The position numbers were made by a program, and so were the translations under genes. Below, piece after piece: positions 3,487 through 40,227 of a stretch of DNA of 40,233 bases. How positions within the stretch are numbered: position 1 is the stretch's first letter; each line of letters begins with the position of its first letter. The notes beneath the pieces were generated by a model. That model was not told where the DNA came from. It was given only the letters and a program-made list of their open reading frames with translations, and did no database searches. Where the stretch lies: the sequence record PZ445540.1; one strand, 5' to 3'. Origin of the DNA: a phage.

Positions 3487-4644
3487 ATGTCTGAACTCGC
3501 TCTCATTCAAAAAGCAATCGAAGAATCCCAGCAGAAAATGACCCAGCTGTTCGATGCGCAGAAAGCTGAAATCGAAAGCACGGGCCAGGTTTCCAAACAG
3601 CTGCAGTCCGACCTGGCAAAAGTACAGGAAGAACTGTCCAAATCCGGTACCCGCCTCTTCGATCTGGAACAAAAACTGGCTTCCGGTGCTGAAAATCCGG
3701 GTGAGAAGAAATCCTTCTCTGAACGTGCCGCTGAAGAGCTCATCAAGTCATGGGACGGCAAACAGGGCACCTTCGACGCGAAGACGTTTAACAAGTCTCT
3801 CGGCAGTGACGCTGATTCTGCTGGCTCACTGATCCAGCCGATGCAGATCCCTGGCATCATCATGCCGGGCCTGCGCCGTCTGACTATTCGTGACCTGCTG
3901 GCTCAGGGCCGAATTTCCAGCAACGCTCTCGAATACGTGCGTGAAGAGGTGTTTACCAATAACGCCGACGTAGTGGCAGAGAAGGCGCTTAAGCCAGAGT
4001 CAGATATCACCTTCAGCAAACAGACCGCGAACGTAAAGACCATCGCGCACTGGGTGCAGGCATCACGTCAGGTGATGGACGATGCGCCAATGCTGCAGTC
4101 CTACGTTAACAACCGCCTCATGTACGGTCTGGCACTGAAGGAAGAAGGCCAGCTGCTGAACGGCGACGGCACCGGGGATAACCTGGAAGGTCTGAACAAA
4201 GTGGCAACCGCCTACGACACCTCGCTGAATGCAACCGGCGACACCCGCGCCGACATTATCGCTCACGCCATTTATCAGGTGACAGAGTCTGAGTTTAGCG
4301 CTTCCGGTATCGTCCTGAACCCGCGCGACTGGCACAACATTGCGCTGCTGAAAGACAACGAAGGCCGCTATATCTTCGGTGGTCCTCAGGCGTTTACCAG
4401 CAACATCATGTGGGGCCTGCCGGTGGTACCGACCAAGGCACAGGCAGCGGGTACCTTCACTGTGGGCGGTTTCGACATGGCATCTCAGGTCTGGGATCGC
4501 ATGGATGCCACCGTAGAAGTCAGCCGCGAAGATCGCGACAACTTCGTGAAAAACATGCTGACCATCCTGTGTGAAGAACGCCTTGCGCTGGCGCACTATC
4601 GCCCGACGGCAATCATCAAGGGCACTTTCTCTTCTGGCTCATGA
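3487..4644 (+). CDS. major capsid protein (HK97 fold) with N-terminal delta/scaffold domain
   Basis: 385 aa; coiled-coil-rich N-terminal ~100 aa (delta domain) followed by a capsid-like body; strong RBS; intrinsic terminator-like hairpin immediately downstream. Confidence 0.85.
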   Translation: MSELALIQKAIEESQQKMTQLFDAQKAEIESTGQVSKQLQSDLAKVQEELSKSGTRLFDLEQKLASGAENPGEKKSFSERAAEELIKSWDGKQGTFDAKTFNKSLGSDADSAGSLIQPMQIPGIIMPGLRRLTIRDLLAQGRISSNALEYVREEVFTNNADVVAEKALKPESDITFSKQTANVKTIAHWVQASRQVMDDAPMLQSYVNNRLMYGLALKEEGQLLNGDGTGDNLEGLNKVATAYDTSLNATGDTRADIIAHAIYQVTESEFSASGIVLNPRDWHNIALLKDNEGRYIFGGPQAFTSNIMWGLPVVPTKAQAAGTFTVGGFDMASQVWDRMDATVEVSREDRDNFVKNMLTILCEERLALAHYRPTAIIKGTFSSGS

Positions 4645-4678: not shown

Positions 4679-5005
4679 ATGGCGATAGATGTTTTGGATG
4701 TAATTAGCCTCCCCCTTTTCAAACAGCAGATTGAGTTTGAGGAGGATGACAGGGACGAGCTGATCACGCTGTACGCACAGGCAGCCTTTGACTACTGCTA
4801 CCGGTGGTGTGATGAACCGGCATGGAAAGCGGCAACTGACATTCCTGCAGCAGTGAAGGGCGCCGTACTGCTGGTGTTTGCGGACATGTTCGAGCACAGG
4901 ACCGCGCAGAGTGAAGTACAGCTTTATGAGAACGCCGCCGCAGAACGGATGATGTTCATCCATCGCAACTGGCGCGGTAAATCTGAACCTGAGGAGGGCT
5001 CCTGA
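4679..5005 (+). CDS. head-tail connector protein (gp6-like)
   Basis: 108 aa; position right after the capsid gene; sequence character of Phage_connect-type adaptor. Confidence 0.6.
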   Translation: MAIDVLDVISLPLFKQQIEFEEDDRDELITLYAQAAFDYCYRWCDEPAWKAATDIPAAVKGAVLLVFADMFEHRTAQSEVQLYENAAAERMMFIHRNWRGKSEPEEGS

Positions 5006-6192: not shown

Positions 6193-6636
6193 ATGTCTGC
6201 ACTTTATGAAAAATCGCAGCTGACGAAGATCCTTATTTCCTCTCTGCCAGCCACCAAAGAAACGATGGATTCCGCAACCTTCCTCGATCTGAGTTGCACC
6301 ATCAAAGAAATTCAGTTCACCGGTGGTCAGAAGCAGGATATCGACGTAACGACGCTTTGCTCGACCGAGCAGGAGAACATTAACGGTCTGCCTTCTCCGT
6401 CAGAAATCTCTCTGTCCGGAAACTTCTACAAGAATCCGGCGCAGGACGCCTTGCGTGATGCGTATGACAACGATACTACCTACGCGTTCCAGGTTATCTT
6501 CCCGTCCGGCAAGGGCTTTAAGTTCCTGGCTGAAATCCGCCAGCACACCTGGTCTTCCGGTACCAACGGCGTAGTGGCGGCAACGTTCTCCCTGCGCCTG
6601 AAAGGTAAGCCTGAAAGCATCGAGTCTGGCTCCTGA
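6193..6636 (+). CDS. major tail protein
   Basis: 147 aa; strong RBS (AGGAG); position before the tail assembly chaperones and tape measure. Confidence 0.65.
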   Translation: MSALYEKSQLTKILISSLPATKETMDSATFLDLSCTIKEIQFTGGQKQDIDVTTLCSTEQENINGLPSPSEISLSGNFYKNPAQDALRDAYDNDTTYAFQVIFPSGKGFKFLAEIRQHTWSSGTNGVVAATFSLRLKGKPESIESGS

Positions 6637-7036: not shown

Positions 7037-7315
7037 ATGTCGCTTGCGCTCCGGATGGGGCGCACGCTCTCAGAGCTTCGGCAGAATATGACGGCAAGCG
7101 AGCTTCTGATGTGGATTGAGTACGACAGGCAAAGTCCGGTTGGCGATATTCGTGGTGACATTCAGGCAGCTCAGCTCGTCTCTGCCATCTACGGCTCGCA
7201 GGGGGCAAAAGTACCGCTGGACGATGCGATCCTGCGCTGGGGTGGTGATGAGCAATCAGAACCGAAGGACCAGTTTGCAGGACTTGAGGCTGCACTTACA
7301 GCTGCAACTCAGTGA
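7037..7315 (+). CDS. tail assembly chaperone partner (T-like)
   Basis: 92 aa ORF in the -1 frame relative to the upstream chaperone, with its own ATG; G/T-like arrangement. Confidence 0.4.
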   Translation: MSLALRMGRTLSELRQNMTASELLMWIEYDRQSPVGDIRGDIQAAQLVSAIYGSQGAKVPLDDAILRWGGDEQSEPKDQFAGLEAALTAATQ

Positions 7316-7368
7316 CAAATGAACTACAAAATAATAGGATTATTTTTTTTAATGATTTGGTGAAGGCA

Positions 7369-7662
7369 ATGAAAAAACTAGTCTTATTTGTATTATTTTT
7401 TGGTTTCAGTTGTGTTTCAAATGCAACTCAAACACTGGCTCCATTAGAACCAAATGATTTGCAAAGCTATACGTCTACGATTTGCTCTGATCATGCAAAT
7501 CCTGAATTGTGTAAAAAGGCTTTTTTTAAATTCATGGGCTATATAAAAACAAACGATGATTACTACTATTTCTGTCAAAAGCAAAAAGAGGCAGGGATGA
7601 CGATTAATAAAGATTCATGCAATAAATCGGAAGCTCTGAGAGAATTTTTAGACAAGCCATGA
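7369..7662 (+). CDS. small secreted Cys-containing protein (moron)
   Basis: Internal ATG at 7369 gives MKKLVLFVLFFGFSCVSNA signal peptide; mature ~78 aa with 4 Cys; ~32% GC versus ~52% for the phage; own terminator downstream. Confidence 0.5.
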   Translation: MKKLVLFVLFFGFSCVSNATQTLAPLEPNDLQSYTSTICSDHANPELCKKAFFKFMGYIKTNDDYYYFCQKQKEAGMTINKDSCNKSEALREFLDKP

Positions 7663-12295: not shown

Positions 12296-13006
12296 ATGCG
12301 GCAGAAAACCATTGATGCCATTATGGCGCATGCTGCAGCTGAATATCCTCGCGAATGCTGCGGCGTGGTGGCGCAGAAAAGCCGCGTTGAACGTTATTTC
12401 CCGTGCCGGAATCTTGCCGCGGCGCCGGAGGACAATTTTGTCCTTTGCCCAGAAGACTATGCAGCTGCTGAGGACTGGGGCACGGTGATCGCCATCGCGC
12501 ACAGTCACCCTGATGCCACGACACAGCCGAGCGAACTGGATAAAGCGCAATGCGATGCAACGCTTTTACCCTGGCACATCGTGAGCTGGCCTGAGGGGGA
12601 TTTACGCACCATCCAGCCGCGCGGAGAACTGCCGCTTCTGGAGCGTCCGTTTGTGCTTGGACACTTCGACTGCTGGGGGCTGGTAATGAGCTATTTCCGG
12701 CAAACACATGGGATTGAGTTGCACGACTACCGGGTTGATTATCCCTGGTGGGAAAACGACTATCCGGATAACTTCTATCAGGACTGTTGGTATGAGTGCG
12801 GATTCCGTGAATTCGACGGGCCACCGAAACCCGGAGATATGGTGATCATGCAGGTCCAGGCTGATAAGTGGAATCACGCGGGGATTCTTCTGGAGGGAAA
12901 TATGCTACTCCACCACCTGTATGGACATCTGAGCCAGCGCGTGCCGTATGGTGGCTATTGGCAGGAAAGAACGATGAAGATTTTACGTTACAAATCTCTG
13001 TGCTAA
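12296..13006 (+). CDS. tail assembly protein (lambda K-like; JAB/MPN + NlpC/P60)
   Basis: 236 aa; 'AIAHSHPD' JAMM-type motif and Cys/His hydrolase-like C-terminal half. Confidence 0.78.
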   Translation: MRQKTIDAIMAHAAAEYPRECCGVVAQKSRVERYFPCRNLAAAPEDNFVLCPEDYAAAEDWGTVIAIAHSHPDATTQPSELDKAQCDATLLPWHIVSWPEGDLRTIQPRGELPLLERPFVLGHFDCWGLVMSYFRQTHGIELHDYRVDYPWWENDYPDNFYQDCWYECGFREFDGPPKPGDMVIMQVQADKWNHAGILLEGNMLLHHLYGHLSQRVPYGGYWQERTMKILRYKSLC

Positions 13007-13038
13007 CCTCTTGTTAATTTAAACAAGGGGATGATGGA

Positions 13039-13560
13039 ATGAGGAATGTTTTAATTTTAGCGTTTGTCACATTTTTGTTTGGCTGCACTGAAAGAGCGCG
13101 ACCAGCAGATGAAATCGATCATGAAAGTGGACTGGTTAAAATATTCAGCACTAAAAATTTTAATACTGCGCAAGATAGGGCTGATATTCTTTGCGGCAAA
13201 AAATCATATTATGTGAAAGCTCTTCATGAAAGTAATTTGGTACTTTTAAGAAACAACCTCTCCGACGTATATTTGTTCGATTACATTCCTTTTCAGTGTG
13301 AGCTGAAAGCTGCCGCAAACGCGGGAAACTCTGAAGCTAAAGCGCTCTATGACAAAAAACTTACTGATGCATATCGTAATCTTGAAGAGTCTAAAAGAAA
13401 TCAGTACGAAGCGCATAAAGCTTATGCCAAAAAGCATGGGATTGATTCATATAGCACAGTAAACCCTGATGGCAGCATAGAGGCTCACACCATAGATTCC
13501 AGCGGTAACGCTTGTCATAGCACTGTCGGTATATATGGAGGGGAAACAGTCTGTGACTAA
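13039..13560 (+). CDS. lipoprotein of unknown function (moron)
   Basis: 173 aa; N-terminal signal with lipobox LFGC; ~38% GC; inserted between the K-like and I-like tail genes. Confidence 0.5.
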   Translation: MRNVLILAFVTFLFGCTERARPADEIDHESGLVKIFSTKNFNTAQDRADILCGKKSYYVKALHESNLVLLRNNLSDVYLFDYIPFQCELKAAANAGNSEAKALYDKKLTDAYRNLEESKRNQYEAHKAYAKKHGIDSYSTVNPDGSIEAHTIDSSGNACHSTVGIYGGETVCD

Positions 13561-13597
13561 TTTATGTTGCTTTAATTAGTCAATTTTCGAGGTTCAT

Positions 13598-14176
13598 ATG
13601 ACAGAAAATATGACTCAAATTGAACTCGGTGGCATTCTGGGTAAAACATTTGGGAAAATGCACTACCGGCTTATTAGTAAGACCAGTGAGGCTACTCGCA
13701 GTTTAGCGGCAACACTGGACGGTTTTGAGAAGTTTATGATCTCCAGCCAGCGGAGGGGATTAACATATGCTGTTTTTAAGGGTAAGAAAAATATAGGTCT
13801 GGATGATTTAGGCTTTCCAGTTTCCGGTGAAGTAATCCGGATTGTCCCTGTAGTAATAGGAAGTAAAAAAGCGGGATTACTGCAAACAATTCTCGGAGCG
13901 GTATTAGTGGTAGTGGGTGTGGTTACCTCTGCATATGGTGGAGCACCATTGATCGGCGCAGGTATTGGTATGATGGCTGGTGGTATCGTCCAAATGCTAT
14001 CCCCTCAGCCAACCGGACTGGCCAGCAAGCAAAGTGCAGATAACCGCGCATCATACGCGTTCGGTGGAGTGACAAACACCGCTGCTCAGGGCTACCCGGT
14101 ACCGCTGCTTTATGGTCGCCGGCGAATCGGTGGGGCAATTATTTCCGCCGGAATTTATGTCGAGGATCAGCAATGA
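13598..14176 (+). CDS. tail assembly protein (lambda I-like)
   Basis: 192 aa; position between the K-like gene and J; Gly-rich hydrophobic C-terminal half. Confidence 0.65.
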   Translation: MTENMTQIELGGILGKTFGKMHYRLISKTSEATRSLAATLDGFEKFMISSQRRGLTYAVFKGKKNIGLDDLGFPVSGEVIRIVPVVIGSKKAGLLQTILGAVLVVVGVVTSAYGGAPLIGAGIGMMAGGIVQMLSPQPTGLASKQSADNRASYAFGGVTNTAAQGYPVPLLYGRRRIGGAIISAGIYVEDQQ

Positions 14177-14439
14177 AAAAATACTTGAGATTGACTATTT
14201 CAGGCCTGCATCGCGTGGATGACGGAATCCTAATCGGCGGAAATGCGACAGTAATAGTAAACCGTGGCGGAGAGGTTATTTGTCGCGAGACACTTTCTGG
14301 CAAAGTTTCCGATAAATATTCAAAGCTATATGAAGTTGAAGATACCCTTATTCCAGTATCAGTAACGTCGTCCAGTGATTGTCCGTTTTTCAGAGCTGAA
14401 GCTGACTTTGTAAATCCATTTAGCGAAACAAACATCTAA
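14173..14439 (+). CDS. hypothetical protein
   Basis: 88 aa ORF whose ATG overlaps the I-like stop (ATGA); followed by an intrinsic terminator. Confidence 0.4.
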   Translation: MKKYLRLTISGLHRVDDGILIGGNATVIVNRGGEVICRETLSGKVSDKYSKLYEVEDTLIPVSVTSSSDCPFFRAEADFVNPFSETNI

Positions 14440-14458
14440 CTAATTTTCTTCAGAAATA

Positions 14459-14483
14459 AGCCAACTTCGGGTGGCTTTTTTTA
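14459..14483 (+). terminator. intrinsic terminator upstream of J
   Basis: agccaacttcgggtggct followed by TTTTTTT. Confidence 0.55.
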
Positions 14484-14493
14484 TGGGCGCAAT

Positions 14494-17400
14494 ATGGCTA
14501 CAGAAAAAGTGTTAAAGGGCCGCAAGGGCGGCAGCTCAAGTTCCCGAACCCCAACCGAACAGCCTGATGATCTGCAATCTGTAGCGAAGGCAAAAATCCT
14601 CGTTGCGCTTGGGGAAGGGGAGTTTGCAGGGCAGCTAACCGGCAAAGATATCTACCTGGACGGAACGGCACTTGAGAACGCTGACGGCTCCCAAAACTTC
14701 AGCGGCGTAACGTGGGAATTTCGCGCAGGAACGCAGGCGCAAAAATATATTCAGGGCATACCCGGTACCGAAAACGAAATCAGCGTTGGTACCGAAGTTT
14801 CCAGCACTACAGCCTGGACGCGCACATTCACCAATACGCAGCTTTCAGCGGTTCGCTTGCGTCTGAAATGGCCGTCACTCTTTAAACAGGAAAACGACGG
14901 TGATCTGGTCGGCTACTCAATAAACTATGCTATCGACCTGCAGACTGACGGCGGTATCTGGCATACGGTACTCAATACCAGTGTGACCGGGAAAACGACA
15001 TCAGGTTACGAGCGCAGCCACCGAATTGATTTACCGCAGGCTGGCAGCACCTGGACAATCAGACTGCGTAAGATTACAGCCGATGCCAATAGTGCGAAGA
15101 TCGGCGACACGATGACGCTGCAGAGCTTCACTGAGGTGATCGACGCCAAACTGCGCTACCCGAACACAGCATTGCTGTATATTGAGTTTGATTCAAGCCA
15201 GTTCAACGGCTCTATCCCGCAGATTTCATGCGAGCCGCGCGGGCGCGTTATTCGCGTTCCTGATAACTACGATCCTGAAACCAGAACATATTTCGGCACA
15301 TGGACCGGCGCCTTTAAATGGGCATGGACCGATAACCCGGCGTGGATTTTTTACGACCTGGTGGTTTCCGACCGCTTCGGTCTTGGTCACCGGCTAAGCG
15401 CGGCAAATATCGATAAATGGACGCTGTATCAGGTGGCTCAGTATTGTGATCAGAGAGTTCCTGACGGAAAGGGTGGCAGCGGTACCGAACCACGGTACAC
15501 CTGCAACGTGTACATTCAGGACCGGAACGACGCCTACACAGTCCTGCGTGATTTTGCTGCTATCTTCCGGGGCATGACCTACTGGGGCGGCAATCAAATT
15601 GTTGCTCTGGCTGACATGCCGCGTGATGTTGATTACAGCTATACGCGCGCAAACGTTATTGACGGTCGATTCACCTATTCGAGCAGTACCACGAAAAGCC
15701 GATACACTACCGCGCTGGTATCATGGTCCGATCCAGATAATGCCTACGCCGACGCTATGGAGCCGGTATTTGAGCAGTCGCTGGTTGCGCGGTACGGTTT
15801 TAACCAACTGGAAATGACCGCCATCGGCTGCACCAGGCAGTCAGAGGCAAACCGAAAGGGGCGCTGGGGTATTCTCACCAACAACAAGGATCGCGTTGTT
15901 TCGTTTGATGTGGGCCTGGACGGAAACATACCACAGCCAGGCTACATCATCGCCGTGGCTGACGAACTGCTGTCCGGAAAGGTAATGGGTGGCCGCATCA
16001 GCGAAGTTAACGGTCGCGTTATCAGGCTTGATCGTGTTCCTGATGCGACTGCAGGTGATCGCCTTATTCTGAACCTTCCATCTGGAGCTTCGCAGAGCCG
16101 CACCATTCAGGCGGTAAACGGTGAGTCGGTAACTGTCACAACCACGTACAGTGAGACGCCACAGCCCGAAGCAGTTTGGCTGGTGGAATCAAACGAGCTC
16201 TACGCGCAACAGTACCGCGTTGTCAGTGTGAGCGATAACAATAATGGTACCTTCTCAATCACTGCGGCATTTCATGACCCGGACAAATACGCCAGAATTG
16301 ATACCGGCGCGATTATCGACCAGCGACCGATTAGTGTTATTCCGCCGGGAAACCAGTCCGCACCAGCCAACATCGTAATCAGCTCGTTTTCTGTGGTTCA
16401 GCAGAATATCAGCGTCGAAACCATGCGCGTAAGCTGGGACCAGGCAAAAAATGCCATCGCCTATGAGGCACAGTGGCGCCGTAACGACGGGAACTGGGTG
16501 AACATGCCGCGCAGCTCCACCACGTCATTTGACGTCCCGGGGATTTATGCCGGGCGCTACCTGGTGCGCGTGCGCGCAATTAATGCCGCTGAAATTTCCT
16601 CAGGATGGGGATATTCAGAAGAGAAGACACTGACCGGCAAAGTAGGTAATCCGCCTAAGCCAGTAGGATTCACCGCCACGGGCATTAACTGGGGGATTCG
16701 TCTTAACTGGGGTTTCCCGGCAAACACCGGCGATACGCTAAAAACGGAAATTCAGTACACTGCCAACAGTGACTTTTCAGATCCACTCTTGCTCTCAGAC
16801 GTGCCTTATCCATCTGCGGAATACACCCAGCTCGGCCTTAAAGCAGGGCAGGAATTCTGGTACCGCGCGCAGCTGGTCGACAGAACGGGTAACGAGTCCG
16901 GGTATACCGACTGGATCAGGGGGATGTCTAACGATAACGCCGATGATTATCTTGGAGATATCGCAGACGATTTCCTAACCTCTGCCGACGGGGAACGCCT
17001 CACCGGTGACATCGATACCAACATTGAGGGAATTCTACAGAACGCCCTGGCGAACCACGGAACTGTTGAGCACCAGTGGGCACAATACGGAGAAGTGCGT
17101 GCCGATATTCTGGTGGTTAAAACGACGATTGCTGAAGTTGATAATGCAATGGCCGAACTTTCGACGCAGGTGCAGGCGCAGATTGAGGATGTTACCGCTT
17201 CCCTGGAAGACAAGCTTACAGCCGTCGTTGATGCCTCTGGCGCTTCGGCTATCTACACCCTCAAAACAGGCGTGAGGATAAACGGCATCATGTATAACGC
17301 CGGGATGTCGATTGCCGTTCTGGCGCAGGCAGGGCAGCCGATTGTTACCCGAGTAGGTTTCAACGCTAACCAGTTCGTGCTGATGAGTGGCAGTGGCGAT

Positions 17401-26265: not shown

Positions 26266-26633
26266 GAATGCTCCTGCGTGATGGCCGCTGTTTTCTTAGC
26301 ATGTTCGACCAGCTCTGCCACAAGCTCATCAACCAGCAGCTTTCCGCTTTCAGTCAGGTATTCGCCATGACCATTCACATCAACTGCATTCCGGTACAAA
26401 TCGCGGATAGCTTTATCGCCTGCCACCGGGCCATGCTCACTTCGCGCCATTTTTTCAAACCGGCACAGAAGCCCGTCGAATAAAATCTCGGTCAGCTCCA
26501 TGGTCGTTATTCCGCCTTTCGGAAGAGTAATAACAATGCAGGTTGTGCCTGTTTTACGTTGGTGGCGTAATAACGCTGCCTTTAAAATTCGGCGTCGGTA
26601 GGTTTCAATTACGTTGTTTTTCACGGCGTTCAA
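26262..26633 (-). CDS. hypothetical protein
   Basis: 123 aa ORF in the early-left operon. Confidence 0.4.
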   Translation of the reverse strand: MNAVKNNVIETYRRRILKAALLRHQRKTGTTCIVITLPKGGITTMELTEILFDGLLCRFEKMARSEHGPVAGDKAIRDLYRNAVDVNGHGEYLTESGKLLVDELVAELVEHAKKTAAITQEHS

Positions 26634-26808
26634 ACTCCGAATCCATCCACATAGAAACCTGAGCCGATAAATCGAGGCAGAGGCCTGATAAGGAAATTAT
26701 TTGCTCAATATCCATATCAGTAATGTTCGAGTTAATTAACTCCATTAACTGATAAAGGTTATCTGCTGTGTTTTTAGCGGTTTCGATTGAACTATCTTTG
26801 CTAAGCAT
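26605..26808 (-). CDS. hypothetical protein
   Basis: 67 aa ORF, AT-rich. Confidence 0.3.
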   Translation of the reverse strand: MLSKDSSIETAKNTADNLYQLMELINSNITDMDIEQIISLSGLCLDLSAQVSMWMDSEFERREKQRN

Positions 26809-27000
26809 ATTCAGACTCCATAAGCTTTGCGCATGAAAAGGTCTGTGATATGGCGGTATTCTTCGCCATAGGCCTCGAAGAAAAGCCGCGCAGTTTTATA
26901 AGCTGCTCTGTCTTTGATGAATGTCATTTTTAACCTAATCCTGTTTTCAGGTTGCAGGAAGCCACACCAGTGAAGGTGTTATTTGTTTTATTGTTTAGCG

Positions 27001-27423
27001 TTACTTATTGAATTCGATCTTGTCCGCTTTAGAGCTAATAATGCTCTGCATTTCATCCAGTTTTTGGGAGACGAGACTTAAAACCCCAATTGAGTTTGAT
27101 TCTGTTGGTATATCATCCATTGAATTATAAACGGCAAGCTTACAATCGCCGATATCACAAGCCCAAGAGTTAAGTTGATTAGCTAGCGCTGTTAGCGACT
27201 CTAATTTTTGTCCCCGTTGACACTCAGCTCCAGCATGGATGCTAAGTTGCTCCACATACTCGTAAGCAGTTTGGCTGGTCTTTAGCATAGAACGAATCAG
27301 GCAGGAAATTGTGTTATCGGCTTCCGGTGAAAATTCATTTATGCGGTAAATAACCTCCAGTAACGAAGCATTCTCAGTGATTTCCGCAGCAATATCATTT
27401 AGCATTTCGATTGGATTTTTCAT
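27001..27423 (-). CDS. hypothetical acidic protein (second gene of the pL operon)
   Basis: 140 aa; ~40% GC; start overlaps the upstream stop by 1 nt. Confidence 0.45.
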   Translation of the reverse strand: MKNPIEMLNDIAAEITENASLLEVIYRINEFSPEADNTISCLIRSMLKTSQTAYEYVEQLSIHAGAECQRGQKLESLTALANQLNSWACDIGDCKLAVYNSMDDIPTESNSIGVLSLVSQKLDEMQSIISSKADKIEFNK

Positions 27424-27623
27424 TATCGTTTATCCCATTCATTTTTATGGGCCTCGTTTGCATAGTTGCAGGCAAACGCGAGAAGAATGTCGCTAATTTC
27501 TCTATACTCGTCATCATCAACCGCCGATAACAAACTAGCTGCTTCAACAATCAAGGACATATTCTTGAAGGCATCACAAGGATGGATGGACAACCCCTTA
27601 AATGTTTTTATCTTCTGAGACAT
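27423..27623 (-). CDS. hypothetical small protein (first gene of the pL operon)
   Basis: 66 aa; just downstream of the OL-like operator cluster; not Arg-rich, so not an N-like antiterminator. Confidence 0.4.
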   Translation of the reverse strand: MSQKIKTFKGLSIHPCDAFKNMSLIVEAASLLSAVDDDEYREISDILLAFACNYANEAHKNEWDKR

Positions 27624-27668
27624 TTTCTATCACCTCTGAGTTGATTTGATAGAATGATGATAGAGCCT

Positions 27669-27716
27669 GCTATTGGTCTTTGCAATAGGTATTGCTATTT
27701 AAATTGCTATTGATTT
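27669..27716. promoter_or_regulatory. OL-like operator cluster
   Basis: CTATTGgtctttgCAATAG inverted repeat plus two ATTGCTAT half-sites; same motif family as at OR. Confidence 0.55.
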
Positions 27717-27956
27717 TTATGTCATTGATATCAAAAATGAAAAAATCTATTGCTGATGTGTTTGTAACAGCACGGTAGAAATAATTGTCCTTTAGACAGT
27801 GATCTACCAATACATGAGATATCGGGAGTTGGAGCATCGAAGCTTGAGAATAAAATGGACTGTGAAAGGGCGAGATACTCGCAGAGAGAAAGAGGGTAGG
27901 AGTTCCGATCAGGTAGTTGCCCGCCTGGTTGACTGGTGGTTACTATTGTGGGGGCA

Positions 27957-27983
27957 CATAGAAAACCCGGCGCACTGGCCGGG
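27957..27983 (-). terminator. intrinsic terminator downstream of cI
   Basis: Minus-strand hairpin cccggccagtgcgccggg followed by TTTTC. Confidence 0.55.
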
Positions 27984-28036
27984 TTAAGAATCTACTCAGC
28001 TTGTTATGCGTAAGTTTTTATTTTCATTTGCATTAT

Positions 28037-34046: not shown

Positions 34047-34338
34047 TCCGAGTGCGATGGCAAACGCAATTATCTCTGCTGTGATCGTTATTGCACTGAT
34101 GTTCTACCAGCGCGGCGGGGCGAGACATCGCCCTCTGATATCGCTGATGGCGTATTTCACGGTGCTGGTATACGCCAGCGTCCCTTTCCGTTATTTGTTC
34201 GGCCTGTACCATGAATCCCACTGGTTTGTGGTGCTGGTGAACGTCCTGATATGCGCCGCCGTTCTCTGGGCTCGGGGAAACGTAGCACGCATCATTGACG
34301 TCCTGAGGCATTCGCATGACCAAAGACGAAATTTTTAA
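34033..34338 (+). CDS. holin-like / antiholin membrane protein
   Basis: ATG 34033 with RBS GGAGGGG, ~101 aa; 2-3 TM segments; overlaps both neighbouring genes. Confidence 0.45.
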   Translation: MVTSDPSAMANAIISAVIVIALMFYQRGGARHRPLISLMAYFTVLVYASVPFRYLFGLYHESHWFVVLVNVLICAAVLWARGNVARIIDVLRHSHDQRRNF

Positions 34339-34858
34339 TGCCATCCTCGGTAAAGAGGGCGGCTACGTTAATCACCCTGACGATAAGGGCGGTCCAACTA
34401 ACTGGGGGATCACACAAGCGGTAGCTCGCGCCCACGGATTTTTCGGGGATATGCGAAACCTGACCCGCCAGCAGGCGCTAGATATCCTGACGGCCGACTA
34501 CTGGACAGGGCCACGCTTCGACCTTGTTTCTGAGGTATCACCAGCCATCGCTGCCGAACTCTGCGACACAGGCGTAAACATGGGCCCATCAGTTCAGACC
34601 AAATGGTTTCAGCGCTGGCTGAACGTGTTCAACATTCAGGGCACGCTCTATCCCGATCTGATTGCCGATGGCTTTATCGGTCCGCGAACCATCAGCGCGT
34701 TAAAAAGCTATCTTTCCCGGCGCGGAAAAGAGGGTGAGCTGGTTATGCTTCGGGCCCTGAATTGTAGCCAGGGTCAGCGTTATCTTGAGCTGGCAGAGCA
34801 GCGTAGCGCGAACGAAACATTTGTTTATGGCTGGGTAAAGGAGCGGGTGGTTATATGA
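34316..34858 (+). CDS. endolysin (glycoside hydrolase family 108-like with peptidoglycan-binding domain)
   Basis: N-terminal 'ILGKEGGYVNHPDDKGGPTNWGIT' matches the GH108 signature; 180 aa. Confidence 0.85.
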   Translation: MTKDEIFNAILGKEGGYVNHPDDKGGPTNWGITQAVARAHGFFGDMRNLTRQQALDILTADYWTGPRFDLVSEVSPAIAAELCDTGVNMGPSVQTKWFQRWLNVFNIQGTLYPDLIADGFIGPRTISALKSYLSRRGKEGELVMLRALNCSQGQRYLELAEQRSANETFVYGWVKERVVI

Positions 34859-35124: not shown

Positions 35125-35275
35125 GGTAGTGGACACGGCTTGCGACTGGGTTAAACCCATCTACGGAACGGATCACGACTGGGATGTGCTGGATCGCCAG
35201 ACGAAGAAAGACATCCTGGCGCATAACAAAGCGTGGCAGGCGAACTGCCAGAAAGAAACCAGAGCCTCGCAATAG
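35045..35275 (+). CDS. o-spanin (Rz1-like lipoprotein)
   Basis: 76 aa; signal peptide with lipobox LIASC; starts inside the i-spanin ORF in another frame. Confidence 0.65.
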   Translation: MYSKLLTTCLMTMLIASCAQTGPVKVEVVDTACDWVKPIYGTDHDWDVLDRQTKKDILAHNKAWQANCQKETRASQ

Positions 35276-35303: not shown

Positions 35304-35501
35304 ATGACTGTAGTTCTCACAGCTAAGCAAATCGAAGACCTGGCTAATTTCGCAAAAGAAGACGGCGCGCCTCAATACACCATCACCACGGGGACAATCC
35401 CGGAGTTAGAAACAGATGATGGTGAAATTATTCCTGAATACTCTGGTCTGATCGCGTATTCAGATTCACTTGAGCGTGGCGTGTTACAACTCGACGATTA
35501 A
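35304..35501 (+). CDS. hypothetical acidic protein
   Basis: 65 aa ORF; RBS GAGGAAAGAG. Confidence 0.35.
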   Translation: MTVVLTAKQIEDLANFAKEDGAPQYTITTGTIPELETDDGEIIPEYSGLIAYSDSLERGVLQLDD

Positions 35502-35543
35502 GTGGCCATTACAAAGCTCACCTGCTGGTGGGCTTGATAATGG

Positions 35544-35592
35544 TTATCCCCTCTAAGGGATAAAGCACTGAATATCCCTTCTAAAGGATAAA
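35544..35592. promoter_or_regulatory. two tandem 22-bp palindromic elements
   Basis: TTATCCCctctaaGGGATAA and ATATCCCttctaaaGGATAAAT, 27 bp centre to centre; the second ends 4 nt before ATG 35595. Confidence 0.45.
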
Positions 35593-35594
35593 TA

Positions 35595-35789
35595 ATGAAA
35601 AACATACCAATGTCCGTTCATCACGAAGGTAAAGACTGGTATCCGTTCAGTGTGAACTTCTCAGATAATGAAGGACGTCAGTTCTCTTTCACCATCTACG
35701 CCATAAGCCGCGAGCACGCCTCCTACGTTGTACAGGAGATACGGGAAACGGCAACACTCGGTGATCAGTTAGTAAGCATCACCAAATAG
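35595..35789 (+). CDS. hypothetical protein
   Basis: 64 aa ORF immediately after the tandem palindromes. Confidence 0.4.
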   Translation: MKNIPMSVHHEGKDWYPFSVNFSDNEGRQFSFTIYAISREHASYVVQEIRETATLGDQLVSITK

Positions 35790-35910
35790 ACAACTCTATG
35801 CGCATCGCACGCGCACATCTAAGAAAGTCTTTCAGCTGTGAGCCTGGGCAAACCGTTAACTTTCGGCGGCTTTGCCGTGCGACAGGCTCACGCCTAAAAG
35901 GAAATAAATC

Positions 35911-36462
35911 ATGGGTCAGAAAATCATTACGTTGTCCGGCGCTGCGACGGATGTTCTTTATGCGCTGTTTTTCCGTGGCGCGCTTCAGTCTGGTGACCTG
36001 CCAGCTAAATCTGGTGCTGCTGAGCTTCGGGAGCTGGGATTCGCTGAAACACGCCATACCGCGACGGAGTATCAAAAGGAAAATTATTTCACCTTCCTGA
36101 CTGCTGAAGGGCAGGAGTTTGCTATTAAGCACATGGTAAATACGCGCTTTGGTGTACCTACCGGTGGTTATATCGGCTCACCTGTAGATAAGCCGGGGGG
36201 AGATATCCGTTGCTGTTGCCCAATAGAAGGCATTAGCTGGGGCTGGTTTGTCGATAAATCCGGACAGGCATACATCCACAAGGCGCTGATCGGCGATGGC
36301 GTATTGTCTACGAGTTATAACGTGAAGATTAATGCTGACGAAAAAGGAAAAGCGCCAGAGACAGCCTTACAGCAGGCCATTAAAAAGGTTGTGGACGAAA
36401 CTGTGCAACAAGCAATGCAGCCAGGCGGCAAGATCTGGAATTCCTTGAAGCGTAGATTCTGA
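35911..36462 (+). CDS. hypothetical protein
   Basis: 183 aa; RBS AAGGA; 'CCCP' motif; directly upstream of the glycosyltransferase. Confidence 0.45.
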   Translation: MGQKIITLSGAATDVLYALFFRGALQSGDLPAKSGAAELRELGFAETRHTATEYQKENYFTFLTAEGQEFAIKHMVNTRFGVPTGGYIGSPVDKPGGDIRCCCPIEGISWGWFVDKSGQAYIHKALIGDGVLSTSYNVKINADEKGKAPETALQQAIKKVVDETVQQAMQPGGKIWNSLKRRF

Positions 36463-36473
36463 CGGGAGGTTTT

Positions 36474-37931
36474 ATGCAGGTCACTATTGATGGTGTCCCA
36501 TACGCTCCCGCCAGCGTCGTTTCATCACGGATCGGCATTGCCATTTCGACGCATCAGCGTGCAGACGTTTTAAAACGAGCACTCGAACAGCACATGAAGC
36601 ATCTTCCCGCCGGCGCGCTGGTGGTGGTTGTCGATGATGGTTCAAAACCTGCAGCGGTAGTTCCCCACGGCGTGCAGCTGCTTCGCCATGAAACATCACT
36701 CGGCATTGTTGCTTCGAAGAACACCAGTCTGTCAGCCTTGATGGATGCCGGGTGCGAGCATCTTTTTCTGTGGGATGATGATGCCTGGCCGATTGCTGAT
36801 AACTGGCACCTGCCTTACATCGAATCACCCGAGCCACACCTGGCTTACCAGTTTCTCGATCTTGCTGGCACGAACAAGCTGAATGACCTTTCGGTGCTTT
36901 ACCGTGACGATCAGCATGTGGCGTACACCGGGCAGCGCGGCGTGATGCTTTATTACCACCGCAGCGCCATCGAGAAGGTAGGCGGATTCGATCCGGTTTA
37001 TGGCCGGGGCATGTATGAGCACAGCGACCTCGCCTTGCGCATCCATAACGCAGGACTGACTACGTGGGCTTACGCTGATGTCCTCGGTTCAGAAAAGCTG
37101 ATTCATTCCCTTGATGAGCATGAAGCCGTAGAGCGTTCGGTACCGAAACCAGATCGACAGGCGCTGGTAGAACGTAACGTTAAAATCCATAACGAACGGC
37201 GCGATGCCGGGTTTACCGGTTCCGTGGATTATCGGCGGCAGCGCGACGTGGTTATCACTACTCTGCTGACCAGCCAGTCAGATCCGCAGCGCGGTACGAA
37301 AATGTCCGCCGCACCTGACATGCTGACCCGTTGGGCTTCCTCGCTTCGGAATTGTGGTCGTATCGCGCTGGTGGATGAACTGCAGACGGCACCGGCAGAC
37401 GTTGAGCTGTATCGCGTTCCTGACGTGAAGATGAATGTCTACTTCCGGCGATGGCTGCATATCTGGCAGCACCTGCGTGATCATCCTGAATACCGGTTCG
37501 TCTGGTGTACCGATGGTACAGATGTCGAAATGCTCCGCGCACCGTGGGAAGAAATGCAGCCCGGTACTGTTTACGTCGGTTCTGAACCGAAGACCTACGC
37601 CGACACCTGGGCAAAGCAGAATCATCCTGAGCGTATCTATCAGGAGTTCATCGAAGCGCACCGCAACGATGTGATGCTAAACGCTGGTCTGCTGGGTGGT
37701 ACCCGCGCTGATGTAATGGCGTTTGCCCACGGCATCATCCGTCTTTACTACCGGATCGAGAGTTATCGTTTCTGGAAGAAAGAACAGGCTGGCGCCGCGG
37801 TGGGGGATATGATCGCTTTTGGCATTGTTGCTAAGTCTTTTGGCGATCGCATTGTCACCGGACCGCGCATCCATACAGTGTTTAAGTCAGAAGGAATCGG
37901 TAAAGAGTACGCATGGTTCAAACATAAGTAA
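36474..37931 (+). CDS. glycosyltransferase (family 2-like GT-A N-terminal domain + unknown C-terminal domain)
   Basis: 485 aa; 'GIAISTHQR...LVVVVDDGS' nucleotide-sugar-binding motif and 'FLWDDDAWP' DxD-like motif; no TM segment. Confidence 0.7.
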   Translation: MQVTIDGVPYAPASVVSSRIGIAISTHQRADVLKRALEQHMKHLPAGALVVVVDDGSKPAAVVPHGVQLLRHETSLGIVASKNTSLSALMDAGCEHLFLWDDDAWPIADNWHLPYIESPEPHLAYQFLDLAGTNKLNDLSVLYRDDQHVAYTGQRGVMLYYHRSAIEKVGGFDPVYGRGMYEHSDLALRIHNAGLTTWAYADVLGSEKLIHSLDEHEAVERSVPKPDRQALVERNVKIHNERRDAGFTGSVDYRRQRDVVITTLLTSQSDPQRGTKMSAAPDMLTRWASSLRNCGRIALVDELQTAPADVELYRVPDVKMNVYFRRWLHIWQHLRDHPEYRFVWCTDGTDVEMLRAPWEEMQPGTVYVGSEPKTYADTWAKQNHPERIYQEFIEAHRNDVMLNAGLLGGTRADVMAFAHGIIRLYYRIESYRFWKKEQAGAAVGDMIAFGIVAKSFGDRIVTGPRIHTVFKSEGIGKEYAWFKHK

Positions 37932-37944
37932 GAGAGGAAATTAT

Positions 37945-38095
37945 GGTAAGCAAAACACTAGTTAAGAGTAAAAGCGGCAACAAATCTAGTTGCCGCAGCC
38001 AAGAATTTTTCAGAGTGCCTACAGGTAAGATATTTATATCTTCTGCAAGTATTGAAAAATTAGTTTGTTTTTACGGAGTCAAGAATCTTCAGTAA
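37945..38095 (+). CDS. small ORF (50 aa) in AT-rich island
   Basis: Hand-translated MVSKTLVKSKSGNKSSCRSQEFFRVPTGKIFISSASIEKLVCFYGVKNLQ; RBS AGAGGAAA; 3' end overlaps the convergent minus-strand ORF. Confidence 0.2.
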
Positions 38096-38299
38096 AGCTT
38101 CTTTTGCATGAGTGTGAGCCTCAACCATCGACGGGTCACTAACAGAAGTTGATTTAATAAAGTTTGCAATAACTTCTTTGTTGTTTGAGCCAACAACAAA
38201 TGCGCTGAATGTCTGAGCAAGCAGTTCTGTCAGCGCGTAATTTTTGCGTAAAACGTCATCAATCCGTTCAAACTGTTCTGAAACGCTATATCCACTCAT
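38060..38299 (-). CDS. hypothetical protein (AT-rich island, opposite strand)
   Basis: 79 aa ORF on the minus strand inside an otherwise + strand late operon; low GC. Confidence 0.35.
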   Translation of the reverse strand: MSGYSVSEQFERIDDVLRKNYALTELLAQTFSAFVVGSNNKEVIANFIKSTSVSDPSMVEAHTHAKEALLKILDSVKTN

Positions 38300-38429
38300 T
38301 TCCTTTCCTTCGTCAGAGGTAATCAGCCATCACTCTGCACATGTGTGCGCCAGTGTCCCACCACTGACGGGCTGAGTGCTTACCTTAACCAGGGTTAAAG
38401 CGAAGTAACACCCTGATATTCAGACAGTA

Positions 38430-38452
38430 GCCGCCATCGTGCGGCTTTTTTA
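38430..38452 (+). terminator. intrinsic terminator immediately upstream of the second glycosyltransferase-like gene
   Basis: gccgccatcgtgcggc followed by TTTTTTATT; the RBS GGAG and a GTG start follow within 20 nt. Confidence 0.55.
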
Positions 38453-38466
38453 TTGGAGATTTGCTG

Positions 38467-39054
38467 GTGGCTGAAAACATAAAGTTTGTGGTGGTCGGTC
38501 ATCACGCCAGACGGCAGCAGGCTGAGGCGTTGGCCTCGGCTATAGGCGCACATTTGCTGATTGATGACGGTAACCACGGCGCGAACTGGAATCACCGACG
38601 CGCGCTTGAGTGGGCAGCAGAGCAAACATGCAGGGTGGTAGTGTTGGAAGACGACGCACTGCCGGTACATGGATTCACCGAAAAGGTAACTGACTGGTTG
38701 GCTCGCTTCCCTGACGACATGCTGAGCTTTTATCTCGGTACCGGCCGACCGCCGCAGTATCAGAAAGAGATTGCCGGAATGCTGGTGGATTCGGATCGCG
38801 TCTGTGGTGACCACATCGTAATAAGCAAGCTGATTCACGGCGTATGTTATAGCCCTCCTCGGGGAAGTTTGGCGCGCATGCTCAGCACATGGAACAAAAC
38901 GCTTGCAGCTGATTACGCCGTCGGTGAGGCCTTCGGTGGCCGGGTGATTTATCCGTGTTACTCGCTGGTGGATCACGCTGACCTCCAGACGGTTGAACGT
39001 CACCCTGACAACGAGCCGAGGACAGAACGCCGCCGCGCATGGAGGCTGGCATGA
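38467..39054 (+). CDS. glycosyltransferase family 25-like protein
   Basis: Start tentatively GTG 38467 (RBS GGAG 8 nt upstream), ~195 aa; 'HGANWNHRRALEW...CRVVVLEDDALP...FYLG' resembles the GT25 (LPS/LOS glycosyltransferase) pattern. Confidence 0.5.
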   Translation: MAENIKFVVVGHHARRQQAEALASAIGAHLLIDDGNHGANWNHRRALEWAAEQTCRVVVLEDDALPVHGFTEKVTDWLARFPDDMLSFYLGTGRPPQYQKEIAGMLVDSDRVCGDHIVISKLIHGVCYSPPRGSLARMLSTWNKTLAADYAVGEAFGGRVIYPCYSLVDHADLQTVERHPDNEPRTERRRAWRLA

Positions 39055-39392
39055 ACAAAGAGCCCCGCGTATATGGCAGCCGATGGGATAAGGCCCGCCT
39101 GCGTTTCCTGCAGCAGCACCCACTATGTGTGATGTGCGAGCAGCAGGGGCGCATAACCCCAGCAACGGTGGTTGACCATATAGAGCCCCACAAACTCAAA
39201 GATGCGCTTAAGTCAGGCAATGCTGAGGCAATCGCCAAAGCTCAGTACCAGTTCTGGAATAAAGCCAACTGGCAGGCACTGTGCAAAGCGCACCATGACT
39301 CAACTAAGCAGAGAATGGAGAAGAGCGGCACAGTCATAGGCTGTGATGCCAACGGCTACCCGCTCGATCCTGCGTCTCACTGGAGTAAGTAA
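39051..39392 (+). CDS. HNH endonuclease (packaging-associated)
   Basis: ATG 39051 overlaps the upstream stop; CxxC...'VDHIEPHK'...'CKAHHD' HNH motifs; adjacent to TerS as in cos-type phages. Confidence 0.85.
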   Translation: MNKEPRVYGSRWDKARLRFLQQHPLCVMCEQQGRITPATVVDHIEPHKLKDALKSGNAEAIAKAQYQFWNKANWQALCKAHHDSTKQRMEKSGTVIGCDANGYPLDPASHWSK

Positions 39393-39741: not shown

Positions 39742-40227
39742 ATGGCAGATAAACGAACCCGTTCCGACAGTTCGGCGGCAGCGGTTCAGGCCATGAAAAA
39801 TGCAGCAGTGGACACCATCGATCCTCCGTCCCATGCAGGTTTGGAGAAAAAAGCCGAACCATTCTGGCATGACAATATCAGATCGAAAGCTCTGGACAGC
39901 TGGACGCCAGCCGACCTTTTGGCCGCCGTAGAACTGGCAAATAATCAGCTCTATATCACCGTTTTACGCAAGGATTTGCGCAAAGAAGAGCGAATTCGCG
40001 GAGAGGGCCGTGACGAAGGGCTTATCAAAGACCTACGCAAGCAGATTGTTGAGCTGCAGCGAACTATTCTGGCTCAGCGCCGTGACCTCCAGATCCATTC
40101 CCACGCAACCAACGGCGAAAGCCGCGACCAGAAGAAACGCAATCAGAATGATCGTGATGCACGAAATACCAAAAACGAGCATCAGGACCAGGACGACAAC
40201 CTGATCGCCTTTCCCAAGCACGGATAA
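39742..40227 (+). CDS. terminase small subunit (P27-family-like)
   Basis: 161 aa; N-terminus and charged C-terminal tail resemble P27-type TerS; stop lies 6 nt before the TerL ATG at position 1 if the window is circularly joined. Confidence 0.7.
   Translation: MADKRTRSDSSAAAVQAMKNAAVDTIDPPSHAGLEKKAEPFWHDNIRSKALDSWTPADLLAAVELANNQLYITVLRKDLRKEERIRGEGRDEGLIKDLRKQIVELQRTILAQRRDLQIHSHATNGESRDQKKRNQNDRDARNTKNEHQDQDDNLIAFPKHG

Follow-up and report, generated by a model that had tools for sequence, protein, structure and literature searches.

The phage genome analysed here (sequence record PZ445540.1; its full 40,233 nucleotides are called the window) is the complete genome of an HK97-like lambdoid phage of Escherichia coli. 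It carries two glycosyltransferase (GT) genes, which encode a 485-amino-acid (aa) protein, GT1, and a protein of about 195 aa, GT2, and these are likely to form a late-expressed O-glycosylation system for the virion, of the kind represented by gp110 of mycobacteriophage Che8. To avoid confusion with the Pfam family that is also named GT2, we refer to the second protein as the small GT. We favour this reading of the sequence data because the enzymes have Che8 gp110-type homology and because their presence covaries with the C-termini of the capsid protein and the tail-tube protein. Given this enzyme kinship with the mycobacteriophage system, coupled with capsid and tail-tube proteins that end in Gly-Ser, the phage probably glycosylates its own virion. 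The analysis shows the GT folds and motifs, the mycobacteriophage homology, a conserved gene position and the covariation of Gly-Ser ends with GT presence, whereas the initiating enzyme, the acceptor residue, the sugars used and the biological benefit are inferred. Of the three roles that had been put forward, with no preference among them, in the original prediction, which was made from the letters of the sequence without database searches, glycosylation of virion proteins is favoured by homology and covariation, whereas modification of the host lipopolysaccharide (LPS) core and modification of DNA are disfavoured.

The larger enzyme, GT1, matches PHROG 1579 ('glycosyltransferase') with E=6e-250. 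Its own score against the Pfam family GT2 (PF00535) is 19.3 bits, below the 23.3 cutoff, and among 84 diverse members of its family the N-terminal half matches GT2 in 63 and Glyco_transf_7C in 61. An exhaustive homolog search revealed that this family of full-length, two-domain proteins is large and diverse (248 representatives at E<1e-30), and the 84 diverse representatives were used for the family alignment. AlphaFold modelling of GT1 on a shallow alignment of sequences 82-91% identical gave an unusable result with a predicted local distance difference test score (pLDDT) of 44; the 84-sequence alignment that replaced it yielded a pLDDT of 95.3 and a predicted template modelling score of 0.87. 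When this model was searched with Foldseek, the top full-length matches were the tandem GT-A enzymes PmHS2 (heparosan synthase), K4CP (chondroitin polymerase) and COLGALT1, followed by single-domain GT6 enzymes, with ppGalNAc-T also among the best matches. The C-terminal half, which had originally been described as a large unrecognised domain, is thus a second GT-A domain, and GT1 as modelled is two GT-A domains in tandem. It resembles E. coli K4CP and Pasteurella PmHS2 in having two such domains per chain (Foldseek E ~1e-11 to 1e-12), although identities of only 11-12% and low template modelling scores indicate that the domains are arranged differently.

The N-terminal domain (approximately residues 18-245) is GT2/GT27-like, with the motifs VVVVDDGS (D54 and D55) and WDDD (D101-103); its Rossmann-like GT-A fold and DXD motif, together with the PF00535 matches of its family members, bear out the earlier assignment of a GT2-type N-terminal domain. 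In the C-terminal domain (approximately residues 257-485) there are the motifs DPQRG, TDGTD (D347 and D350; conserved and acidic) and NAGLLGG, and an invariant C-terminal W-x-K-H-K. Every catalytic-type motif that is invariant in the 84-sequence family is also present in GT1. A single-sequence search of the PDB with GT1 found nothing, one with the small GT gave only chance proteasome matches, and NCBIfam searches with the GT proteins returned sub-threshold matches only. Even so, PHROG matches for both GTs, and the AlphaFold and Foldseek results for GT1, indicate that the GT motifs are not spurious. We predict that GT1 serves as a glycan-extending enzyme.

The same model bears on whether these GTs might glycosylate DNA bases for anti-restriction, like the T4 glucosyltransferases or TET-associated GTs, which we judge to be very unlikely. 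Weak matches to Pfam TAGT (PF20691) do occur in 15 of the 84 GT1 family members, and both late expression and the adjacent packaging genes would suit this role. However, those matches reach 16-17 bits where the cutoff is 27.5, they fall on the generic GT-A core, GT1 itself has none, and the GT1 model is GT-A whereas the T4 DNA glucosyltransferases are GT-B. Furthermore, the ten largest open reading frames (ORFs) of the early region (21-33 kb), which encode an integrase, an anti-repressor, a repressor, an O-like protein, a primase/helicase, Q and four proteins of unknown function, include no hydroxymethylase, TET/JBP or base-modification gene.

The small GT matches PHROG 854 ('glucosyltransferase') with E=9e-72, and its BLASTP alignment with Che8 gp110 extends over 192 aa at 33% identity (E=9e-24). 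It was earlier called GT25-like, a label with indirect support, in that its homolog Che8 gp110 passes the Pfam GT25 threshold (32.3 bits, cutoff 24) but the window protein itself does not. Its ORF can begin at TTG 38461 (197 aa) or at GTG 38467 (195 aa). The GTG is the better and most likely start, because a Shine-Dalgarno (SD) sequence, GGAGA at 38455-38459, lies 7 nt upstream of it and because the homologs are 195-196 aa long. We predict that the small GT is the initiating protein O-glycosyltransferase.

When both GT proteins were compared by tblastn with 50,697 phage records, their main relatives proved to be in mycobacteriophages. Homologs of the small GT are found in 723 phage records, among them 662 of mycobacteriophages and 25 of Gordonia phages, and GT1 aligns over its full length with the large GT of cluster F1 phages (Sparky gp88 and BobaPhett gp104, 42-46% identity) and with Myrna gp234 (36% identity). 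The F1 phages and Myrna share this large GT with the window, in which it stands beside the gp110-family gene as an additional, predicted glycan-extending enzyme. Jumbo phages of Serratia and Klebsiella carry both GTs. Che8 has extending enzymes of its own, gp108 (GT2 and methyltransferase) and gp109, which were considered as counterparts of GT1 and ruled out because neither is homologous to it. The layouts are also comparable, given that the right end of Che8 reads gp108-110 (GTs), gp111, HNH and cos, as in the window, and that cluster O phages carry a gp110-like GT between the portal and protease/capsid genes.

According to four later papers, Che8 gp110 and Corndog gp38 are GTs essential for virion glycosylation, the O-glycosylated targets are the capsid and the tail tube, and non-glycosylated mutants of these mycobacteriophages lose antibody shielding (PMC12363180, PMC11600133, PMC11256854, PMC11652166). 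Myrna is likewise reported to be glycosylated. The present system differs in having a Gram-negative host and an HK97-like lambdoid phage as its carrier, and in being a prediction from sequence.

An envelope role must also be weighed, in which the GTs would act on a glycan of the host envelope (LPS core, O-antigen or some other) and thereby cause lysogenic conversion or superinfection exclusion. LPS-core enzymes exist within the GT25 (Pfam PF01755) and GT-A families, the region from the lysis genes to cos is a classic moron slot in which other morons adjoin the GTs, and the PHROG category of both GTs, 'moron, auxiliary metabolic gene and host takeover', fits this role. Nevertheless, we consider it unlikely. 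The GT genes lie on the late-gene strand, the small GT gene overlaps the essential late HNH gene, and the only internal sigma-70-like promoter is one weak site. Neither protein has a transmembrane segment (maximum 19-residue hydropathy 1.27 for GT1 and 0.83 for the small GT), and there are no GtrA/GtrC-type partners. Mycobacteriophages and Gordonia phages, which infect hosts that lack LPS, carry the same GT pair, all distant GT1 homologs that were sampled sit in phage settings, on contigs that end short of the capsid genes, and an envelope target would leave the covariation with capsid and tail-tube C-termini, described below, unexplained.

The GtrABC systems are another case of glycosylation encoded by temperate phages of Enterobacteriaceae; they consist of membrane proteins that use a bactoprenol-linked sugar, lie next to int/att and are expressed in lysogens. 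Unlike them, the GTs described here have no transmembrane segments and are located about 13 kb from the integrase gene, within the late operon. COLGALT1 is a protein O-glycosyltransferase and is related to the present system through the Foldseek match of GT1 and the GT25 match of Che8 gp110, but the acceptor we propose is a C-terminal Ser rather than the hydroxylysine of COLGALT1 or the LPS of the LPS-core GT25 enzymes. Capsid glycosylation by A064R of chlorovirus PBCV-1 concerns a eukaryotic giant virus and an enzyme with no detectable sequence homology. The PBCV-1 capsid glycan has an atypical N-linkage at internal sites.

If the GTs glycosylate the virion in the manner of Che8 gp110, their acceptors might be recognizable by their C-termini, which is where Freeman et al. 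(2023, Cell Host Microbe) reportedly place the glycans on the subunits of capsid and tail tube. The window has 259 ORF segments that are 60 aa or longer, of which only three end in Gly-Ser, and these encode the major capsid protein (MCP), the tail-tube protein and the head-tail adaptor Ad1. Likewise, in Che8 and BobaPhett the MCP (...NKTGS) and the tail tube (...YSDGS) have the only Gly-Ser ends among 12 left-arm proteins, and the capsid protein of the cluster O phage YungJamal ends ...PLVGS. On the strength of these sequences, the C-terminal Ser of the capsid protein is the predicted acceptor and the short tail tube a predicted second one. Adaptor Ad1 is a possible third, although its end may be a coincidence, since Ad1 of the GT-less phages HK97 and HK106 also ends ...PEEGS. 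The tail tube exists in two forms among close relatives, a tube-only form of 147 or 156 aa that ends ...SGS and a 234-aa form with a C-terminal immunoglobulin (Ig)-like domain. mEp390, HK542 and the UMNK88 prophage, all of which carry the GTs, have another short tail tube that shares 49% identity with the one in the window and likewise ends in SGS (...ASGS).

The presence of the GTs covaries with these ends across relatives. We sampled 160 loci, half of them centred on the short tail-tube gene and half on the long gene of HK97 type (80 each), and for the tail-tube comparison counted only those with at least 9 kb of upstream sequence. The small GT was present with 34 and absent with 7 of the short, Gly-Ser-ended tail tubes, and it was present with 6 and absent with 54 of the long (234-aa) Ig-bearing ones. 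For the MCP, a Gly-Ser end was accompanied by the small GT at 30 loci and not at 3, whereas all 30 loci with another end lacked it (p=7e-15). Because the loci are not independent, the test was repeated inside capsid clades. In a clade with about 86% core identity, capsids with a ...GAGS or ...GSGS tail had the small GT in 17 cases and lacked it in 2, and those with a ...GGGA or ...PAGA tail lacked it in all 19 (p=1e-8). The GS-tailed capsids are 85% identical among themselves and 86% identical to the Ala-tailed ones. In the HK97-type clade, the capsids of GT-bearing phages end ...SSGS or ...AAAGS, whereas those of GT-less HK106 (98% identical MCP) and of IMG/VR locus L089 end ...FSAD. Within clades, therefore, phages that have the GT also have a terminal hydroxyl residue, in effect a natural Ser-to-Ala control.

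This pattern also bears on an alternative in which the GTs glycosylate a target outside the virion, for instance a small molecule or some other protein of the phage or its host, for host takeover or anti-defence. GT-A enzymes do act on many types of acceptor, and some phages without the GTs retain Gly-Ser ends. We find such a target improbable, given that the Ser/Ala switch at the extreme C-terminus of the capsid protein follows GT presence, that the cluster O GT is embedded among head genes, and that homologs are tied by experiment to glycosylation of the capsid and tail tube.

Several observations nevertheless weigh against a virion O-glycosylation system that acts on Gly-Ser ends. A Pfam search with the small GT gave no match, GT25 included. 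HK97, whose MCP ends ...SSGS, and loci L017, L021 and L037 have Gly-Ser ends without GTs within reach, so that the motif by itself is insufficient as evidence, and the tail tube of YungJamal ends ...IKGDS rather than Gly-Ser. The GT cassette is separated by 5-8 kb from the genes for capsid and tail, and part of the association could therefore be due to linkage. Many sampled loci are near-identical prophages, which inflates the p-values given above.

If GT1 and the small GT do decorate the virion, the process might proceed as follows. During lytic growth, Q-antiterminated late transcription would pass through the lysis genes, GT1, the small GT, the HNH gene and the terminase, head and tail genes. 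The small enzyme, of the gp110 family and GT25-like, would act in the cytoplasm and transfer the first sugar from a host nucleotide-sugar to the C-terminal Ser hydroxyl of the MCP (...SSGS) and of the tail-tube protein (...ESGS), and GT1 would add more sugars by means of two separate GT-A active sites. The outcome would be a glycan coat over head and tail, which would probably do the surface-decoration or shielding job that falls to the Ig-like tail-tube domain in GT-less relatives.

A broader proposition, which we advance only tentatively and hold to be somewhat less probable than its negation, is that the two residues of a free C-terminal Gly-Ser work as a portable 'glyco-tag', which enzymes of the gp110 family would recognize in phages of Enterobacteriaceae as well as in those of Actinobacteria. 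If true, glycan coats and Ig-like domains would be interchangeable means of dressing a tail tube, natural Ser-to-Ala tail switches would control whether capsids are glycosylated, HK97-type capsids, which serve as a classic structural model, would be naturally glycosylatable, and the glyco-engineering of phage particles in E. coli would gain a minimal tag.

Going by the searchable literature, phage-encoded virion glycosylation has so far been documented in actinobacteriophages only, and our literature search found no report of it for a phage of Gram-negative bacteria. Freeman et al. also reportedly describe little evidence of glycosylation across the broader phage population. If confirmed, the present system would add to the glycosylated phages a group from gut Enterobacteriaceae that has HK97-type capsids and is genetically tractable and structurally well understood. 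It would also provide a concrete and testable rule for the acceptor, namely Gly-Ser at the C-terminus, for which natural Ser-to-Ala controls exist, suggest a functional trade-off with Ig-like tail decoration, and have a bearing on the immune visibility of therapeutic phages and on glyco-display engineering.

The position of the GT genes is also informative. The block is flanked by the lysis genes (endolysin and spanins) on one side and by the HNH and TerS genes on the other, as had been described, and the four plus-strand ORFs drawn originally were all recovered (Table 1), as was the match in GC content between the GT genes (0.52-0.56) and the phage. The predicted late co-expression with virion genes gains support from gene arrangement, in that the GT genes are co-oriented with the late genes and the small GT overlaps the HNH gene. 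As judged from the compared gene orders, however, only GT1 and the small GT are the conserved unit, just upstream of the packaging HNH and terminase genes. The 64-aa ORF, the 183-aa ORF and the inter-GT insert are variable mosaic pieces, and the view of a single cluster of 3.5 kb is therefore wrong. At 30 of 34 loci, the stop codon of the small GT lies at -12 or +111 nt relative to the HNH start. The GT genes overlap and run directly into the HNH gene in HK542 and in the prophage of E. coli UMNK88, and in mEp390 an HNH homing-type gene separates them. A metagenomic lineage with 36% identity (L171) has a comparable layout, with GTs and HNH beside cos/terminase, and among the sampled distant homologs there is a lineage with the order small GT, HNH, GT1, TerS, TerL.

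Table 1. Coordinates of the GT genes, candidate acceptors and neighbouring features (window positions unless a locus is named)
Feature	Position	Strand	Remarks
TerL	1-1515
Major capsid protein	3487-4644	+	99% identical to HK97 gp5; ends ...GTFSSGS; PHROG 10
Head-tail adaptor Ad1	4679-5005	+	ends ...PEEGS
Tail tube, short form	6193-6636	+	147 aa; no Ig-like domain; ends ...ESIESGS; Pfam tail-tube families only
Endolysin	34316-34858
Spanins	end at 35275
64-aa ORF	35595-35789	+	PHROG of unknown function
183-aa ORF	35911-36462	+	PHROG of unknown function
GT1	36474-37931	+	485 aa; tandem GT-A glycosyltransferase (modelled)
Inter-GT insert	37932-38460		529 bp; GC 0.46; not part of the GT system
Terminator in insert	37996-37974	-
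79-aa ORF in insert	38060-38299	-	has SD and its own terminator
Terminator in insert	38429-38446	+	just before the small GT
Small GT (GT2)	38467-39054	+	~195 aa; Che8 gp110 family; motif VVVLEDDALP; PHROG 854, BLASTP
HNH endonuclease, packaging-associated	39039-39392	+	Pfam HNH, PHROG 2323; overlaps the end of the small GT
TerS	39742-40227
Tail tube, long form (example)	L085 6733-7437		234 aa; C-terminal domain Ig-like

The inter-GT insert contains a reverse-strand ORF that had been overlooked previously. This 79-aa ORF has no PHROG family and only a sub-threshold Pfam match, and no full copy of it was found across 5,426 complete E. coli genomes. That the insert splits the GT pair and sets a terminator ahead of the small GT, and that the GT cassette is rare in E. 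coli (3 of the same 5,426 genomes), could be taken to mean that the GTs are functionless or decaying cargo that hitch-hikes in the phage and is inactive here. We regard this as highly improbable. Both GT ORFs are intact and retain all of the family-invariant catalytic-type motifs, and hundreds of intact copies, 80-90% identical, reside in Enterobacteriaceae prophages; the cassette is common in those of Enterobacter, Citrobacter, Klebsiella and Cronobacter.

In some distant metagenomic phages, further genes related to glycans come after the GT1 homolog. In one of them (L174, 6528-7220), a stand-alone 230-aa protein with the same ...SWFMHK C-terminus corresponds to a free copy of the C-domain type, and in another (L177, 4792-5508) the neighbour encodes a Stealth_CR2 protein. 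These neighbours suggest variable glycan-elaboration cassettes.

mEp390, HK542 and UMNK88 have neither the 64-aa nor the 183-aa ORF. The 183-aa ORF is itself a mosaic, with an N-terminal portion of about 80 aa that is common to phi80, mEp213, mEp043 and mEp237, and of these phi80 and mEp213 have no GTs. Its last 18 residues, 8 of which are identical, resemble the C-terminus of the tape measure protein that this phage itself encodes (PHROG 24, E=7.5e-6). From this sequence likeness, the ORF might mimic the tape measure and act, for instance, as a moron that blocks injection.

The window as a whole also encodes an HK97-type portal, protease and capsid, together with an integrase, CI, an O-like protein, a primase/helicase and Q. 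The region 35500-39100 is 100% identical to Escherichia phage SaltyDalty, on which a literature search found no publications, and it is partly kept in mEp390, HK542, ECP1, Cronobacter phage ENT39118, Salmonella phage FSL SP-016 and Aeromonas phage AsXd-1. In the SaltyDalty record PP925825, an antisense 'hypothetical protein' (minus strand, window 38395-39165; L001 8896-9477) is annotated at the site of the plus-strand gp110-like GT. The second GT gene is therefore missing from that deposit, and the present analysis corrects this public annotation.

Other parts of the genome, and of its relatives, have features of separate interest. Two marked low-GC islands (0.41, compared with about 0.52 elsewhere) at 13000-14500 in the tail region and at 26500-28000 in the early/immunity region probably represent morons or recently acquired DNA. 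A 116-aa ORF (7312-7662), in a lower-GC stretch flanked by the genes for the tail chaperone and the tape measure, has no PHROG family and carries near its N-terminus a signal-peptide-like hydrophobic segment, KKLVLFVLFFGFSCVSNA (residues 21-38); the counterpart slot in HK97 is occupied by the superinfection-exclusion moron gp15. In the early left operon of HK106 (L086 23031-23831), there is a gene annotated as a queuine tRNA-ribosyltransferase. Its product is possibly DpdA-like and could represent another kind of modification strategy within this group of phages, one aimed at DNA.

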